8,279 nucleotides of DNA, from NCBI GenBank assembly GCA_963548155.1, contig CAUUTP010000088.1:1-8279 (forward strand), written 5' to 3'. The translations under genes were made by a program, and so were the position numbers. This document shows, in pieces, positions 116-8,279 of this stretch. Below the pieces are notes generated by a model. It searched no databases. It had not been told where the DNA came from and saw only the letters and a program-made list of their open reading frames with translations. The number at the start of each line of letters is the position of its first letter. The stretch's first letter is position 1. This DNA is from an uncultured Eikenella sp. (GTDB taxonomy: Bacteria > Pseudomonadota > Gammaproteobacteria > Burkholderiales > Neisseriaceae).

Positions 116-1420
116 ATGGAGCGCATCGAGAACAGACTAGATCAAGTCAGCGGCCAAGGTGAGCGGCGGCAGGCTGCGGAGCGGTTGGCGGCAGCGCGCC
201 AGCGCGACGCCGAACGCTCCGCGGCTTATGCAGCGTTCGAGCAGCGCATGAAAGAGCGTTGGGGCGTAGATATTAAAGCTGCTCGATTAGCCCCCCCCAC
301 GCTAACAGGGGGTGAGTTACAAAAACAGCGGGCAGTGAGTGAAAAATATCGCCGCATCGTAATTCGCAAAGGCAAAGCCGTTGAAGAAATCTTTAGGCGT
401 GGCATTAACGGCCATTTTGCCTTTATCGATCAATTAACGTTTGTTCTCGAAAAAGAAACCTTAAACAGATTATTTGACGCCCAAACCAACGAGCAAGAAG
501 AAATCGTAGCCCGCATGTCTCTATTCCTTCATGAAATCTTTGGTTTCGGCGTGTCCCATGATCGTGAAAAGTCAGCTAATTTTTATAGTAGCAGTTACAA
601 CATCGGCAATCATGAAATTAGTTATGGTGTTTTGTGCATTGGTGGCGGTATTAACCCGTCTAATCAATCCAGTTTATGCGTAGAACTAACGGCGACTGGT
701 CTAAATGCAGCAAAAGACGGCTGGGAACGGCGTTTGTATAACTGTACGCAAATGAAGGAAGTTCAAGGCTTTCGCTTTACTCGCGTTGATTTAGCCCATG
801 ATTTCCTAAGCGGTGAATACAGCGTTAATGATGCTTTGACCGCTTATAAAAATAGCGCTTTTACTAATTCCATTACTAAGCCGAAATTAAGACTAGAAGG
901 CGATGATTGGTACAACGAAACTAAACACGGCAGAACGCTTTATGTCGGTACTCGCCTATCTTCCCGCATGCTCCGCTTTTATGAAAAAGGCAAACAGCTA
1001 GGCGATAGCGAAAGCCCTTGGGTTCGTTGTGAACTCGAATTAAGAAGCAATGATTTAGTTATTCCGCTAGATGTTGTCATTCATCCGGGCGATTACCTAT
1101 CTGCACAATATCCCGAATTAAATCGTCTATTTGGTGAAAACGGCGTATTCGCCCAATCCCAGCCCAAGAAAATCGCCATCAAACAACGCATGGTTCAGGC
1201 AGGGATTGAGCATAGTATTAAATATTTGCGTATGCAGGGAAGCCGTGCCGTCAATATGCTGCTTGAACTCGGTAAGTCCACGGAAGAGATTATGCGCTTA
1301 TTTGATCCTGAAGCTGGCGTTCCAAAAAGCGTTCATCCCGGGCAGCACTTTGCCCAGCTTTTAAAAATTGATTGTATTTCTGAAAAGTTTCTTAACCCCG
1401 TCTGCGGATATAGCGGCTAG
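116..1420 (+). CDS. Phage replication initiation protein (Rep_trans / RstA-like rolling-circle initiator), 434 aa
   Basis: Motifs FTRVDLAHDF, TLYVGTRLSSRMLRFYEKG and WVRCELELRS match the remembered Rep_trans pattern (R-D-A-D, YxGSRxS...YxK, RxELEx). It is the first large gene of the module, and AAAAGG lies about 10 nt upstream of the ATG. The N-terminal ~60 aa are a GC-rich, Ala/Arg-rich extension, so the true start is somewhat uncertain. Confidence 0.85.
   Translation: MERIENRLDQVSGQGERRQAAERLAAARQRDAERSAAYAAFEQRMKERWGVDIKAARLAPPTLTGGELQKQRAVSEKYRRIVIRKGKAVEEIFRRGINGHFAFIDQLTFVLEKETLNRLFDAQTNEQEEIVARMSLFLHEIFGFGVSHDREKSANFYSSSYNIGNHEISYGVLCIGGGINPSNQSSLCVELTATGLNAAKDGWERRLYNCTQMKEVQGFRFTRVDLAHDFLSGEYSVNDALTAYKNSAFTNSITKPKLRLEGDDWYNETKHGRTLYVGTRLSSRMLRFYEKGKQLGDSESPWVRCELELRSNDLVIPLDVVIHPGDYLSAQYPELNRLFGENGVFAQSQPKKIAIKQRMVQAGIEHSIKYLRMQGSRAVNMLLELGKSTEEIMRLFDPEAGVPKSVHPGQHFAQLLKIDCISEKFLNPVCGYSG
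291..298 (+). repeat. Homopolymeric C8 tract inside the rep coding sequence (codons GCC CCC CCC, Ala-Pro-Pro)
   Basis: Counted directly: ...gattag cccccccc ac... Confidence 0.9.
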
Positions 1421-3864: not shown

Positions 3865-4992
3865 ATGATTTCACTGATTACAGGTCTGCCCGGCATGGGC
3901 AAAACCTCCCTCATGGTCTATATGCTGCTCAATCGCAAAGATTTGCAGAATAGGCCGGTCTATGTTGACGGCATTCCGGAATTACAGGTTAAACATGAAG
4001 AAGTACCCGAAGGCGAAAGTATGGAAACATGGCACCAATGGGCGCCGGATGGTTCGATACTCGTTATTGATGAAGCACAGCGGGTCTTTCGTCCGCGCCC
4101 CGCGGGGGCGAAAGTACCCGACTATGTACAGGCTCTTGAAACGCATCGCCATAAGGGTATTGATATCTTTGTACTCACGCAGCATCCGCGGTTGATTGAC
4201 GTCCATCTAAGAAGCCTGATCGGGGAACATCGCAACATCAGCCGCACCATGCTCGGCCTGCGCCGTGTTTCCTACTGGCAGCGTTGCGCTAACCCGGAAG
4301 CCCGGGCAGATGTGGCCGAAGCCAAAAACAGCATATTCATGCCGAAAAAAAGCGTATTCGGTATGTACAAATCAGCCAGTGAACACACCAAGCTTAAAGG
4401 CTCGGTTAGCGCGTGGATCTACACCATCCCCGTTGTGATTGTCATAGTCGGCTATCTCATGTCCTACGTTTGGGCAAGCTATCAGCGCAAAATTCATCCA
4501 GAACAAGCCCAACAGCAACAAGCCCAACAATATCAACAGCAGCCGCAAAATTACCAGCAACAGCAAGGCGGCCAGTATCAGCCGGCCGGCAGCTATGCCG
4601 ATCAATCAGCGGCCAATCAGCAACCGTCTGATAACAACCTGAAGCCTGAAGATTGGCAGCCTGCCATAGATGGCCAGCCTTGGACTGCTCCCATCTATAA
4701 CAACCATAACCGCAATATCCAAACCATGCCCTACCCTGTTGCCTGTGTGCAAACCGATACAAGCTGCACTTGTTACACAGAACAGGCCACACCCTTAGAT
4801 CTGCCTGCCAAGCAATGTCAAAACTACGTTAAAAACGGCATATACAACCCCTATAAGGCACGGCAGGAAACCGCTGACAACGCACCGCAGGGCAGTTATG
4901 GCGGCGGCAGCGGGGCAAGTGTCCTGAGCTTGGATAGTCCTGCTAAGGCTACCATGGCACATGCGGAAATTAGGGGGACTATGGGGCAATAG
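3865..4992 (+). CDS. zot: Zot-family / pI-type phage assembly ATPase, 375 aa
   Basis: N-terminal Walker A GLPGMGKT and Walker B ILVIDEAQ. A central TM helix (AWIYTIPVVIVIVGYLMSYVWA) is followed by a Gln-rich linker and a Cys-containing C-terminal domain. This is the standard pI/Zot architecture. Confidence 0.9.
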   Translation: MISLITGLPGMGKTSLMVYMLLNRKDLQNRPVYVDGIPELQVKHEEVPEGESMETWHQWAPDGSILVIDEAQRVFRPRPAGAKVPDYVQALETHRHKGIDIFVLTQHPRLIDVHLRSLIGEHRNISRTMLGLRRVSYWQRCANPEARADVAEAKNSIFMPKKSVFGMYKSASEHTKLKGSVSAWIYTIPVVIVIVGYLMSYVWASYQRKIHPEQAQQQQAQQYQQQPQNYQQQQGGQYQPAGSYADQSAANQQPSDNNLKPEDWQPAIDGQPWTAPIYNNHNRNIQTMPYPVACVQTDTSCTCYTEQATPLDLPAKQCQNYVKNGIYNPYKARQETADNAPQGSYGGGSGASVLSLDSPAKATMAHAEIRGTMGQ

Positions 4993-5238: not shown

Positions 5239-5350
5239 TGGCGGAATTGACTGCTTGCAGTCGATTTCGGCAGGTATCCGCCAAGCGATAGCGCGGCAGG
5301 GGTGCTGCAAATGGCATGAGGCTACCTGAAAAGGTAGCCAAACCTGCCCG
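5239..5350 (+). other. Cluster of nested stem-loops in the largest intergenic region (candidate packaging signal, origin or terminator region)
   Basis: Hairpin 1: outer stem 5239..5245 with 5277..5283 (TGGCGGA/TCCGCCA), and inner stem 5245..5254 with 5257..5266 (one G:T). Hairpin 2: GGCAGG 5295..5300 with CCTGCC 5343..5348, enclosing a perfect GGCTACC-TGAAAA-GGTAGCC hairpin (5320..5339). Confidence 0.45.
5319..5330 (+). repeat. DNA uptake sequence, 12-mer AGGCTACCTGAA (recalled as the Eikenella AG-eikDUS dialect), copy 1
   Basis: Exact 12-mer. It forms the 5' arm of the 5320..5339 hairpin, as DUS often do in Neisseriaceae intergenic regions. Confidence 0.7.
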
Positions 5351-5569: not shown

Positions 5570-5842
5570 ATGGATTGGAATCAATGTTTTTTGATGCAGC
5601 CTGATGGCGGCAGTTATGCAACGAATTTTAATAATTATCTGACTTTTGTCGTGAATGGGTATAACAGTTTGGTACCGAATGGGCAGCCAGATTTTTCTAA
5701 ACCGGTATATTTGGGCGTAATGATGAGTCCGGCGCAGTTGGCTGTATTGCGCGCTAACCGGCATTTATTTGATGAGAGTTTTAATGATGCTTTGGAACGG
5801 TTACAAAAGAGTTATGACAGGCTTCAAGTGGAGGTGGGTTAG
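5570..5842 (+). CDS. Hypothetical 90-aa protein preceding the TspB/pIII-like gene
   Basis: SD AAGGGGG (5557..5563) lies 6 nt upstream of the ATG. The 3' end overlaps the start region of the next gene out of frame. Confidence 0.6.
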   Translation: MDWNQCFLMQPDGGSYATNFNNYLTFVVNGYNSLVPNGQPDFSKPVYLGVMMSPAQLAVLRANRHLFDESFNDALERLQKSYDRLQVEVG

Positions 5843-7427
5843 TTTATTTTCTCTGCTGAGTGTAGCGGTGCCGGTATGGGCAGATGTGCCAGCCTATCCA
5901 CCGCAAAATGTACCTTCTATGCAGCGTTTAGCTGCTGCGCCAAATGGTCAGTTATTGACAGGGTATAACTCTGTTAATGGTAATTGGTCTTATGATATGA
6001 ATTCTGGTGTGGCTAGGGTTGATAGATTCCAGAATGTCAATCGCGGCGCCGGTGGCCTAGTTGGCACCAAAACCAACCCCGTCAATCTTTACGACAATTA
6101 CGGCAACGTCGCCCGCGGCCAGATCCAAACACAAACCGCCATGCCTGCTAATTCTAGGATAGCCCAAGGCCTAGGCTCTATCTATGTTCTGCAAATCGCC
6201 AACCAACATCTAACCAACCTCAAAGCCCAAGGCGTTTCTGAAATGTACAGCCGCGGTTTTGAGAATGGCGATTGGGGCATGGTTGCAGATGCCACCGCAA
6301 GGCTGTTTGACTGGACAGGCTTTGGCGGAAACGTGCGTGATAGTCTTTACGGCAATCCCGATATGCAGCAGATGAATCAGCAATTACAACAGCAAGCATT
6401 GCAACAGGCACAACAGCAATTTAGCCAATATCAAGCCGTCCCCCATCCTGAGCAGATTAACCCTGCTAATTATTCGGATTACGTTTTACTTACGATTAAC
6501 GAGTTTGGCGAGGGGATTCCTCGATTAAGCAGGCAAGTTTTAGTAAGTAAAGCAGATTTTCGGCAAAAGCGCTGGCAGACAGGTGTTGTTCTTCAAAGCA
6601 AGAACATAGAACAAAGCTGGCCTATTCGTATAGGTGCGGTGGAAATTATGCCCCAGCTGCCAATTAACAATTTTAATTGGGTGCAATTGCGGGCAAAGTT
6701 TGCAACTGCCCAAGATATACGAGATTACAACTTGAGAAATTTGCCTCAGTTATCTGAACTTGTACCAAGGGAAGCCGAAGTAGCCCGCCTGCTTGAACAG
6801 ATGCTGAATGATAACAACCGAAATCACACAGAATTAATTAATGCCCTTTGGGGCGCCGGTGTGATTGGCCCCGGCAATACTCAAAGCATGGTAACGGGCA
6901 GTCCTGCCGATAATACTTTCCTGACCCAGCCTTTTACTCCAGAGGGTTCAAACCAAGCCCAACAAACACAATTCATTGTGAACAATAACGGCAGCATTAC
7001 ACAAAACACAATCCAGCGCCCCGATTTGGTTGCCAACAGCAGCCAAGCTCCTACCCGTGCCGAAGTGGCTGCACAGCATCAACAAGGCCAGCAGGATACC
7101 CGCCCGCAAAAAGAAGGCAGTACATCAGAAAAGCCCGATATTTGTGCGCAAAACCCGAATAGCTTGATGTGTGCGCCTATGGGCAATACCGACTATCAGG
7201 ATTTAGTATTACCACAGCAAAACATCAATATCGCCCTATCTCCGCTGCATATCTTTAATACAGATGCAGCCTGTCCCGCTCCCACCTCTTTCAGCATAGC
7301 GGGAACGCAGCAAAGAATGAGTTACGAACCAATGTGCGACACAGCCCGCAAAGCACGCCCGTTTATTATCATGATGGCCATGACTGCCGCATTTTTGATG
7401 GTGTTTAGCGCCCTTAACCGCCGTTAG
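5784..7427 (+). CDS. Large secreted, C-terminally membrane-anchored protein; TspB / pIII-like adsorption (minor coat) protein candidate
   Basis: Signal-peptide-like N-terminus ...KRVMTGFKWRWVSLFSLLSVAVPVWA/DVP. Gln-rich linker (QQMNQQLQQQALQQAQQQ). C-terminal Cys-containing region (DICAQNPNSLMC, ACPAP, PMC). Terminal TM helix FIIMMAMTAAFLMVFSAL followed by NRR. The start is ambiguous: TTG 5769, or ATG 5772, 5784, 5787 or 5814. I chose 5784 because GAGAG lies 5 nt upstream. Confidence 0.7.
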   Translation: MMLWNGYKRVMTGFKWRWVSLFSLLSVAVPVWADVPAYPPQNVPSMQRLAAAPNGQLLTGYNSVNGNWSYDMNSGVARVDRFQNVNRGAGGLVGTKTNPVNLYDNYGNVARGQIQTQTAMPANSRIAQGLGSIYVLQIANQHLTNLKAQGVSEMYSRGFENGDWGMVADATARLFDWTGFGGNVRDSLYGNPDMQQMNQQLQQQALQQAQQQFSQYQAVPHPEQINPANYSDYVLLTINEFGEGIPRLSRQVLVSKADFRQKRWQTGVVLQSKNIEQSWPIRIGAVEIMPQLPINNFNWVQLRAKFATAQDIRDYNLRNLPQLSELVPREAEVARLLEQMLNDNNRNHTELINALWGAGVIGPGNTQSMVTGSPADNTFLTQPFTPEGSNQAQQTQFIVNNNGSITQNTIQRPDLVANSSQAPTRAEVAAQHQQGQQDTRPQKEGSTSEKPDICAQNPNSLMCAPMGNTDYQDLVLPQQNINIALSPLHIFNTDAACPAPTSFSIAGTQQRMSYEPMCDTARKARPFIIMMAMTAAFLMVFSALNRR

Positions 7428-7437
7428 GCTACCTGAA
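7426..7437 (+). repeat. DNA uptake sequence AGGCTACCTGAA, copy 2
   Basis: Exact 12-mer overlapping the TAG stop (7425..7427) of the TspB-like gene. Confidence 0.7.
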
Positions 7438-7456
7438 GAAACGAAAGGAACCAAAG

Positions 7457-7744
7457 ATGGGCAAAACCCTTGCTGGAATGTTTACCGCAGTTCTAACCAC
7501 CTTAGCGGGCAAAATCATCATGGCCTTAGGTATATCCGCCATTTCTTATACCGGCCTAAACCTGCTCCAAACTCAAATGATTAACGCCCTGACTAGCCAG
7601 CTATCCGCTGCTCCACTTTCCGCCGTTCAGATTATGTACATTGGCGGCCTAGGGGTAGCTCTAAACTGGATACTGGGTGCAGTGGCCTTTCTAGTATCGT
7701 TCAATTCAGTAGCCAAGCTCGGCAGCATCTTCCGCCAGAAATAA
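7457..7744 (+). CDS. DUF2523 / pVI-like inovirus membrane (minor coat) protein, 95 aa
   Basis: Multi-helix hydrophobic protein. The segment ALGISAISYTGLNLLQTQ...LSAAPLSAVQIMYIGGLGVALNWILGA resembles the remembered DUF2523 pattern (GxGxVxYTGL...L....L.LLG). SD AAGGA lies 7 nt upstream. It directly follows the pIII-like gene, as in Pf/Nf-type phages. Confidence 0.72.
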   Translation: MGKTLAGMFTAVLTTLAGKIIMALGISAISYTGLNLLQTQMINALTSQLSAAPLSAVQIMYIGGLGVALNWILGAVAFLVSFNSVAKLGSIFRQK

Positions 7745-7919
7745 AGCAACATAGAATAGATATTCTAAACGGCTTAAAACTTGCTTAAACCATAAAGCCG
7801 CATCATGCCTACATTTAGCCTTGTTAGAAAACAAAGGGAAAGATTGGCGGGTGTGGCTTTACTTATGCCAAAAATCAATACGGTATCTTTGTCCACAGAC
7901 ACAATATAAGGATTGCATC
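7745..7919 (+). promoter_or_regulatory. 175-nt non-coding leader upstream of the IS110-family recombinase; candidate regulatory region or structured (bridge-type) RNA
   Basis: No SD-supported ORF. Contains the inverted repeat TAGAATA-GA-TATTCTA (7752..7767) and the stem CGGCTT/AAGCCG (7770..7775 with 7795..7800) around two GCTTAAA direct repeats. GCATCATG occurs at 7800 and again at 7914. Confidence 0.3.
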
Positions 7920-8279
7920 ATGCAAAAAATCGTACTTGGATTAGATATATCTAAATTGACTATAGATGCATATTTCAATGGTCAAGATGATTTTATTCGG
8001 GTCATGAACAATCAAGCAGGAATAGAAAAATTGATTGAGCGCATAAAAAACTATCAGCAACAAAGTAAAGAGATTCATGCTTGCTGCGAATACACCGGCG
8101 TTTATTACTTTCCGCTTGCCAGCGCATTGCATGACTCAGGAATCAAAATCAGTGTAATCAATCCGCTTTCTATCAAGCTATACGCAGAATACAGATTAAG
8201 ACGAACAAAAACCGACAAACAAGATGCGAAATTAATTGCCGATTATTGCGAAAAAGAAAATCCGCCATTATGGGCATAA
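7920..8279 (+). CDS. IS110 / Piv (PivNM-like) family transposase-recombinase, N-terminal DEDD domain only. The frame ends at TAA 8277..8279 after 119 aa, so it may be truncated or a pseudogene.
   Basis: MQKIVLGLDISK (first Asp), CCEYTGVYY (Glu) and RRTKTDKQDAKLIADYC (two Asp) form the classic IS110 N-terminal signature. SD AAGGA lies 7 nt upstream of ATG 7920. The ORF-track start at TTG 7821 is an upstream open extension without support. Confidence 0.8.
   Translation: MQKIVLGLDISKLTIDAYFNGQDDFIRVMNNQAGIEKLIERIKNYQQQSKEIHACCEYTGVYYFPLASALHDSGIKISVINPLSIKLYAEYRLRRTKTDKQDAKLIADYCEKENPPLWA

Follow-up and report, generated by a model that had tools for sequence, protein, structure and literature searches.

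Does a short non-coding leader tell a filamentous phage where in the chromosome of its host to integrate? The leader in question lies at the right-hand end of the 8,279-nt stretch of Eikenella DNA analyzed here (hereafter the window), where 175 nt separate the stop codon of a DUF2523 gene (7744) from the ATG of an IS110-family recombinase gene (7920), a size that we confirmed. The original prediction, made from the bare sequence, held that this leader has the right size and position to encode a guide RNA of the kind known as bridge RNA, which was described together with its recombinase for IS621, a member of the IS110 group (Durrant et al. 2024, PMC11208160; Hiraizumi et al. 2024, PMC11208158), and comparative evidence identified the leader as a homologue of that RNA. 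We consider positions 7745-7919 (core 7790-7919, + strand) most likely to be an IS621-type bridge RNA gene that would serve the integration of Nf-like filamentous phages (inoviruses) and be aimed at DNA uptake sequences (DUS), and the sequences of its relatives indicate that this family of phages very probably picks its chromosomal insertion sites by means of an RNA guide.

The case is built on comparison, namely on homology with IS621, on covarying helices, on guides that track both the host flanks and the phage's own ends, and on the junction seen in circular genomes. As a reference we used the 177-nt IS621 bridge RNA; checked against E. coli genomes, it was found at 100% identity directly upstream of an annotated IS621 transposase (locus L040:1773-1949, with the ATG at 1950). 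A covariance model trained on 13 leaders of other genera and IS621, with no Eikenella sequence among them (R1), matched the window at 7790-7919 on the + strand only, with 62.7 bits and E=6.5e-15 (the runner-up in the window scored 8 bits), a positive outcome of the covariance-model check that had been proposed for this leader. A second model, trained on phage leaders only and without IS621 (R2), recognized several leaders outside its training set: that of Alysiella (E=1.8e-15), those of Suttonella (E=1e-8 to 2e-11) and that of the L044 lineage (36% recombinase identity; E=1.5e-9). When the leaders were aligned together with IS621, three blocks, AGATT, AC[AG]GTATC and AAGG, were invariant, AGATT being unchanged in 20 sequences including IS621 itself. 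An Rfam scan of the window (E<=10) returned nothing in the leader; this silence is uninformative, since the genuine IS621 bridge RNA is likewise missed and no Rfam family detects it.

The resemblance to IS621 extends to the layout. In both systems an RNA gene of ~130-177 nt occupies the non-coding stretch directly upstream of the recombinase gene and on the same strand, the target-binding loop precedes the donor-binding loop, and the core is CT; the invariant AGAUU after the right target guide and the AAGG[U/A]U after the right donor guide take the places of the handshake guides in IS621, the donor reads ACAGTAT-CT in IS621 and ACGGTAT-CT here, a -35 box lies on the right end and a -10 box on the left end, and the recombinase is of the 320-aa class. 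The two differ in their mobile unit, which is a whole inovirus of ~8-9 kb here and an insertion sequence (IS) of ~1.3 kb there, in the distance of the RNA gene from the left end (~8 kb versus ~15 nt in IS621), in the target (a DUS versus a REP element) and in an extra module resembling a donor loop at the left end of the phages.

We then turned to the structure of the RNA. RNAalifold recovered five pairs only from alignment A4, and hence three helices were set by hand on alignment A5, comprising 16 phage leaders, and then tested. Standard pairs filled 96.2% of the cells in these helices and 17 of the 20 pairs changed on both sides, while none of 500 shuffles reached the observed pairing values and sliding the partners by 1-3 columns, as a control, left 29-42% pairing; a conserved structure with compensatory changes, which the original prediction had proposed to look for, is thus present. 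The 20 pairs form the two-loop architecture of a bridge RNA (Table 1). The outer stem of the target-binding loop, also found in the minimum-energy fold computed by RNAfold, encloses two target guides and an inner hairpin, in which the window has a compensatory U-A pair in place of the C-G pair of L015. The + strand of the leader also folded better than its shuffles (z = -2.6), although a folding z-score alone is weak and it is the comparison with relatives that carries the evidence. In the window, AAUC could pair with GAUU and so close the donor-binding loop with an outer stem, but this candidate was dropped, as neither Kingella nor Neisseria maintains it in A5.

The short motifs to which the original prediction had drawn attention are all in place, yet mostly incidental, being neither the guide elements nor the conserved ones. 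The inverted repeat TAGAATA-GA-TATTCTA (7752-7767) lies in the first 45 nt of the leader, the conservation of which is limited to Eikenella copies and shows no compensatory changes; its hairpin may correspond to the 5' stem-loop of IS621. The elements CGGCTT (7770-7775) and AAGCCG (7795-7800) exist but not the stem proposed between them, as AAGCCG pairs downstream with 7850-7857 instead. The GCTTAAA pair lies at 7772-7778 and 7783-7789, and the 8-mer GCATCATG was found as described at 7800-7807, its second copy occupying 7915-7922, one base from the start given for it (7914); both this 8-mer and the GCTTAAA repeats are lost in L009 and L010. The leader also holds an ATG-initiated frame of 34 codons (7805-7909), as had been described. 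We see virtually no chance that it encodes a small protein, for L009, L010 and L021 have ACG in place of the ATG and are thrown out of frame by an indel of 1 nt, and the frame was already noted in the original prediction to have no ribosome-binding site.

If the leader encodes a bridge RNA, its target guides should be readable in the DNA flanking the prophages. At L001:1788, L015:848 and L021:1861, the left flank in the host (...TTCAGGTAGC-CT) reads the same as the last 6 nt of the left target guide, UAGCCU, and elsewhere the guide ends in ACGGCCU or GCUGCCU, matching the DUS of its own genus (Table 2); throughout, it matches 6-7 bases ending at the core and follows a high-copy repeat of the host. 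The copy numbers of the DUS 12-mers were confirmed. The left-junction repeats are dialects of the DUS (Frye et al. 2013, PMC3630211), inverted pairs of which are associated with transcription terminators (PMC3630211), and the insertion sites found here lie in such a terminator-associated inverted-DUS context. The original prediction had named dRS3 repeats as the sites at which Neisseria Nf/MDA prophages integrate; loop complementarity to attachment sites was found in the relatives, but the target in these hosts is the DUS and not dRS3.

Reverse-complemented, the right target guide of the relatives spells CT and the host DNA of the right flank, and it changes with that flank (Table 2); the AU that follows the guide stands at the position of an IS621 handshake guide. 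L016 and L021 carry the same guide at different loci, both with CTTTTCCATT. Over positions 3-9, the right guide matched its own flank at a mean of 5.0/7 and the flanks of other loci at 2.46/7 (permutation p<1e-5, as also for the left target guide against its own flank), with at least 7 consecutive matches in 10 of the 17 loci. A second lineage (L045-L070, from IMG/VR), with the donor ACACTAT-CT and recombinases each 76-96% identical to that of L044, behaved likewise, five right-guide variants being present among L045-L059 and the own flank being matched in 8 of 11 loci. The relatives thus show guides to opposite strands around the core dinucleotide; for the lineage of the window, target pairing can be checked on the left only (L001, UAGCCU against TAGCCT), because the right junction is absent, and the right target of this copy is predicted to be CT-TTCCCTT.

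These results bear directly on whether the leader could be a mere 5' untranslated region controlling translation or stability of the recombinase mRNA, for instance through helices masking the AAGGA at 7908-7912. This AAGGA does lie 8 nt before the ATG in the conserved 3' part, the structure is conserved, and no separate promoter or terminator was found; a regulatory leader, however, would not change with host DNA outside the element, nor match the element's own two ends, and this leader is colinear with an RNA experimentally shown to be a guide (PMC11208160). We therefore judge an untranslated region of this kind very unlikely.

The donor-binding loop of the proposed bridge RNA matches the ends of the phage itself. 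The left donor guide, UACGGUAUCU, aligns with that of IS621 and co-varies with the right end across lineages (ACGGTAT, ACAGTAT, ACACTAT and ATATTAT), and in the right donor guide CAAG is found exactly where the left end starts with CTTG (L027, L041 and IS621); the AAGGA in this region could double as the ribosome-binding site of the recombinase. The phage ends that the donor guides match read ...ACGGTAT-CT on the right and TATATATT... on the left. In circular inovirus genomes from human saliva viromes, which carry related recombinases and leaders (OR148979, OR148983 and OR148973), the right end runs directly into the left end (...TTGACA-cagaatACAGTAT-CT-TGTATATT...), and so the loop complementarity to attachment and circular-junction sequences that the original prediction had asked about is present in relatives. 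The joined ends make up a near-consensus sigma-70 promoter, TTGACA-N17-TATATT across ACAGTAT-CT-TGTATATT, which faces the early region of the phage and not the bridge RNA, since the RNA gene lies ~8 kb from the left end. Moreover, circular OR148979 (L041) and the integrated prophage at L028 share one and the same leader, and their sequences part directly behind the CT core (CTT being common), beyond which L028 continues into host DNA (CT-TTCTCG...AGGCAGCCTGAA) that matches its right target guide; the crossover therefore falls at CT, and the guide-matching bases are host DNA and not phage.

The same junctions speak to another explanation, in which the ACGGTATCTTT box of the leader is a DNA site recognized by protein, either a third copy of the attachment (att) site or the left end of a nested IS of ~1.1 kb. 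The leader does share these 11-12 bases with the prophage right end and with a site 45 nt inside the left end, but the circular right ends join TGTATATT or TATATATT and not the sequence that follows the box in the leader, a nested IS would hold just 29 nt of left end, unlike the IS621-group relatives, and the box falls on the left donor guide of IS621 in the alignment while the true left boundary lies at the DUS. We regard such a DNA site as very improbable. As part of this explanation, a classical shared att core of 11 nt, formed by ACGGTATCTTT at L001:1822 and at the right end, was considered and rejected, the left boundary having been traced to the DUS and the junction seen in circular genomes.

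Table 1. Features of the window and of the proposed bridge RNA gene
Feature	Position	Strand	Remarks
Leader 5' part	7745-7789	+	hairpin TAGAATA-GA-TATTCTA paired by RNAfold; outside conserved core
Conserved bridge-RNA core, target-binding loop then donor-binding loop (putative)	7790-7919	+	R1 match starts at 7790; colinear with IS621 bridge RNA
Target-binding loop outer stem	7797-7804 + 7806-7809 with 7846-7849 + 7850-7857 (loop 7797-7857)	+	12 pairs, 10 changed on both sides, 97.9% paired
Left target guide ACAUUUAGCCU	7811-7821	+	last two bases CU pair with core; same position as IS621 left target guide AUCGGGCCU
Target-loop inner hairpin	7822-7833 (7822-7825 with 7830-7833)	+	4 of 4 pairs changed on both sides across family
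Right target guide AAGGGAAAG, then invariant AUU	7834-7845 (guide 7834-7842)	+	AG pairs with core; AGATT invariance; tracks flank in relatives
Left donor guide UACGGUAUCU	7879-7888	+	identical to prophage right end TTACGGTAT-CT in L015, L016, L021
Donor-loop hairpin	7890-7901 (7890-7893 with 7898-7901)	+	4 pairs, 3 changed on both sides, 96.8% paired
Right donor guide AUAUAAG, then G(A/U)U	7904-7913 (guide 7904-7910)	+	AG pairs with core; reverse complement of CT-TATAT, phage left end (L001:1788, L015:848)
Rep_trans	116-1420	+	Pfam match
Zot	3865-4992	+	Pfam match
TspB-like	5769-7427	+	Pfam match
DUF2523	7457-7744 (stop codon 7742-7744)	+	Pfam match
DEDD_Tnp_IS110 (PF01548), truncated recombinase gene	7920-8279	+	Pfam match; 119 codons, part of N-terminal DEDD/RuvC-like domain

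Table 2. Target guides of the leaders and the host DNA beside the prophages
Host or locus	Guide	Guide segment or ending	Host repeat or flank
Eikenella	left	UAGCCU	TTCAGGTAGCCT
Neisseria	left	ACGGCCU	TTCAGACGGCCT
Oral Kingella	left	GCUGCCU	TTCAGGCTGCCT
K. denitrificans	left	CCUGCA	AAGCAGCCTGCA
L015	right	TGGGAAAGAT	ATCTTTCCCA
L016, L021	right	AATGGAAAAGAT	ATCTTTTCCATT
L022	right	AGAAAAGAT	ATCTTTTCT
L028	right	GAGAAAGAT	ATCTTTCTC
L030	right	TCAAAAAGAT	ATCTTTTTGA
L032	right	AATATAGAT	ATCTATATT
L033	right	ACTATAGAT	ATCTATAGT
L011	right	GTTTCAGAT	ATCTGAAAC

To put these elements together, in intact relatives the bridge RNA would bind the IS110-family recombinase encoded directly downstream, its target-binding loop would pair with both strands of a chromosomal site around the CT core, at the edge of a reverse-oriented DUS (...TAGC-CT-TTCCC...), and its donor-binding loop would pair with the phage junction ...TTACGGTAT-CT-TATATATT..., which exists only once the two ends are joined in the circular replicative form. 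Recombination at CT would then insert the whole phage genome of ~8.3-9 kb and the reverse reaction would excise it; the joined ends also form the sigma-70 promoter. That the RNA is produced, binds the recombinase and directs recombination we infer from sequence.

Several observations weigh against this model. Nothing resembling a promoter or a terminator was found in a scan of 7300-8279, which takes in the stretch from the upstream gene to the recombinase, and the bridge RNA would probably be made by read-through from the structural genes. The R2 match to the IS621 bridge RNA (L040:1797-1946), though colinear, is marginal (19.9 bits, E=0.018 in 75 kb). The left-guide matches are short, spanning 6-7 nt when the core is counted in and being followed outward by two mismatches, and the right-donor matches are 4-8 nt long; the flank is poorly matched at L025, L031, L023, L047 and L059; and kinship inflates the permutation statistics of the left guide, as loci within a genus share a DUS. 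Finally, the lineage of the window has lost its right end and with it offers no right junction, and this prophage, its recombinase truncated and its right end gone, would be incapable of recombining by itself.

The state of this copy therefore has to be considered apart from the identity of its leader. The recombinase ORF of the window encodes a protein of 119 aa, its end coinciding with that of the window, whereas intact relatives have 320 aa; PF01548 covers residues 7-110 (profile positions 2-106 of 155), and where L009/L015, L010/L016 and L021 read ...PPLWKPLSEK..., the window reads PPLWA followed by a stop. The catalytic residues of IS621 are D11, E60, D102, D105 and S241 (PMC11208158). 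Judging from its motifs (GLDIS, CCEYTG and KTDKQDAK), the window protein probably keeps equivalents of the first four, D11 lying outside the alignment to the IS621 structure PDB 8WT6, which begins at residue 12; the region aligning to the Ser241 motif (DSGTS) is missing, together with the C-terminal domain, so that the ORF does not combine the RuvC-like DEDD domain with a Tnp domain bearing a catalytic serine. The intact relatives do, having both PF01548 and PF02371 with DSGTS aligned to ESGSS, and an intact phage recombinase matched 8WT6 over its full length (E=1.4e-49), with ISCro4 also matched. Protein searches with the 119-aa fragment returned short fragments only, and the full-length L009 relative was used as the query instead.

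By sequence, then, the leader of the window appears to be an intact but orphaned guide gene, unless a co-resident phage supplies the recombinase, and that this very copy still works is far less probable than the bridge RNA assignment for the family. That the region is at present a decaying relic without function, its recombinase a pseudogene, we hold to be rather probable: the ORF is truncated, the right end is replaced by unrelated DNA, and the defect seems fixed in a lineage, as 62 indexed blocks of public assemblies contain the very same 119-aa product. On the other hand, all helices and guide boxes are intact, including the compensatory U-A pair, and the genus also has intact recombinases, 92-94% identical to the window protein, that could step in from elsewhere in trans; such action is conceivable, while excision without a right end is not expected. 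Decay would in any case concern the activity of this copy and not what its sequence is.

As for the breakpoint itself, the recombinase gene breaks off behind codon 118; GCATAA comes next, then GTAACAAAAAAGGTGCTA in two direct copies spaced 22 nt apart (L003:8366-8498), and then, on the minus strand, an unrelated ORF with its 3' end (...KDYFSVSDDE, stop). Six of the eight retrieved contigs break within 47 nt of the recombinase stop, which suggests repeated DNA. A C-terminal fragment, P0064, was considered as the missing half split off by an insertion and was rejected, as it belongs to a different, internally deleted prophage. Such a remnant occurs at L043:3363-6534 (GCA_916618725.1), where Rep and a few small genes are fused straight to the last 177 recombinase codons, an internal deletion derivative.

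The window as a whole is an Nf-like filamentous prophage with all genes on the + strand: a Rep_trans initiator, a Zot-type assembly ATPase, a TspB-like gene and DUF2523, with the IS110-type transposase at the right end, an order that the relatives keep. Its host is Eikenella, for AGGCTACCTGAA abounds in the DNA that flanks identical prophages, occurring 91 times in 93 kb of Eikenella loci, and the homologues are annotated from Eikenella species (E. glucosivorans, E. longinqua and E. corrodens); this phage, with its leader unchanged, recurs in many public assemblies. When genomes were scanned with the recombinase, relatives were found in Eikenella, Neisseria, Kingella, Alysiella, Suttonella and one Neisseriaceae isolate, nearly all of them at the right end of Nf-like inovirus prophages, and by this placement they appear to be a phage-borne clade and not stray insertion sequences. 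A megablast of the whole window against a phage collection gave zero matches, and the ~8.3-8.6 kb contigs, checked for circular sequence, had no terminal overlap.

Among known systems, the closest in gene content are Nf1/MDA and other Neisseria Nf prophages, which, according to the account of Kawai et al. 2005 cited in PMC7058167, integrate by their own IS110/Piv-type transposase at dRS3 with a conserved CT. They share with the phages studied here the same genes (Rep_trans, TspB, DUF2523 and Zot), the right-end transposase and insertion at a CT inside a high-copy chromosomal repeat, and differ in using dRS3 in place of a genus-specific DUS; our comparison covered the genera named above, with meningococcal Nf1 outside it. 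The seekRNA of IS1111 and IS110 elements (Siddiquee et al. 2024, PMC11187229) is similarly an RNA from a non-coding region with short matches to both target strands, and in the Piv/IS492/IS621 branch (315-330 aa) that region lies upstream of the transposase (PMC11187229). In IS1111 elements, in contrast, the RNA is encoded behind the transposase gene and the subterminal inverted repeats are long, and neither trait was seen here: the guides are upstream, and the right end of ~105 nt holds only a hairpin, the -35 box and a donor half-site. Inoviruses that use XerCD/dif (CTXphi and XacF1) are also filamentous phages integrating site-specifically at a short chromosomal sequence, but they borrow the tyrosine recombinases of the host and mimic dif, whereas here the phage would use its own DEDD/serine recombinase and an RNA guide.

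The original prediction knew of no RNA-guided integration by a filamentous phage, and we likewise found no paper making the link: in open-access papers and bioRxiv preprints, nothing relevant tied bridge RNA or seekRNA to filamentous phage, inovirus, prophage or Neisseria, and no RNA guide is described there for Nf phages. A 2024 paper on Thermus inoviruses notes an IS110 transposase and the Nf parallel, with the RNA guide unmentioned. Bridge RNAs are known from insertion sequences of ~1.3 kb, and in these phages such machinery appears to mobilize a whole virus, which, if true, would be a natural precedent for RNA-programmed insertion of large cargo. It would offer a concrete mechanism for the choice of chromosomal repeats by Nf-type phages, a group that includes the meningococcal disease-associated MDA phage; integration sites could be read from the phage sequence itself, and would be linked to the DUS, the signals of natural transformation.

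A further observation concerns the left ends of the phages, 13 of which were aligned (A6) and most of which share one layout (L001:1790-1905, L015:850-965 and L041:2420-2535). It consists of CT|T[AG]TATATT with the -10 box, a hairpin, a box resembling the left donor guide (AC[AG]GTATCTT), another hairpin, a [CT]AAGG resembling the right donor guide and a terminator-like hairpin (AGCCCC...GGGGCTTTT) ahead of the first ORF. The module has CAAG in phages with left ends starting CTTG and TAAG in those with CTTA; it is reduced in L044 and largely missing in L011, and R2 matched these donor-like modules weakly (E 0.4-0.9). By its layout the module resembles a gene for a small RNA that has the donor-binding loop alone, and it sits behind a promoter that would exist only in the circular form. 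Engineered split bridge RNAs work (bioRxiv 10.1101/2025.05.14.653916). We offer as a tentative proposal, which we doubt more than we believe, that inoviruses of the Neisseriaceae and Cardiobacteriaceae are natural RNA-programmed integrating viruses, the guides of which retarget readily, with the left guide tracking the DUS dialect, and that the left-end module may act as a split bridge RNA. If so, such a split RNA could favour integration, or resolve multimers of the replicative form by donor-donor recombination, and phage integration would exploit thousands of genomic competence signals.

Several minor observations were made along the way. The phage + strand of the window itself bears two exact copies of AGGCTACCTGAA, the Eikenella DUS, at 5319-5330 and at 7426-7437, the latter overlapping the end of the TspB-like gene. 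L011 (IMGVR_UViG_2744054915_000004; 1-20 and 8846-10119) has structural genes ~90% identical to those of the window and, behind ~1.4 kb of additional DNA, a different IS110 recombinase (33% identity); the guides of this phage are directed at AGGCTAC-CT-GAAAC, the uptake sequence in the opposite orientation with the crossover within the 12-mer. In the E. coli locus that served as the IS621 reference (L040:1688-1790, NZ_CP024240.1), a second, partial left end lies upstream of the complete IS621, extending from its boundary to the left target guide (...CCGTATCGGGC-CT|TGTATTATCC...), and it looks as if IS621 had inserted in the target-like guide segment of another copy. Lastly, a poly-C tract in the Rep gene (291-298 in the window) reads C8 in the window, L001, L003, L004 and L005, C7 in L002 and L006, and C6 in L014; C7 splits the 434-aa Rep into 62 aa and ~350 aa, and this variation could be slipped-strand switching of replication or a homopolymer sequencing error.

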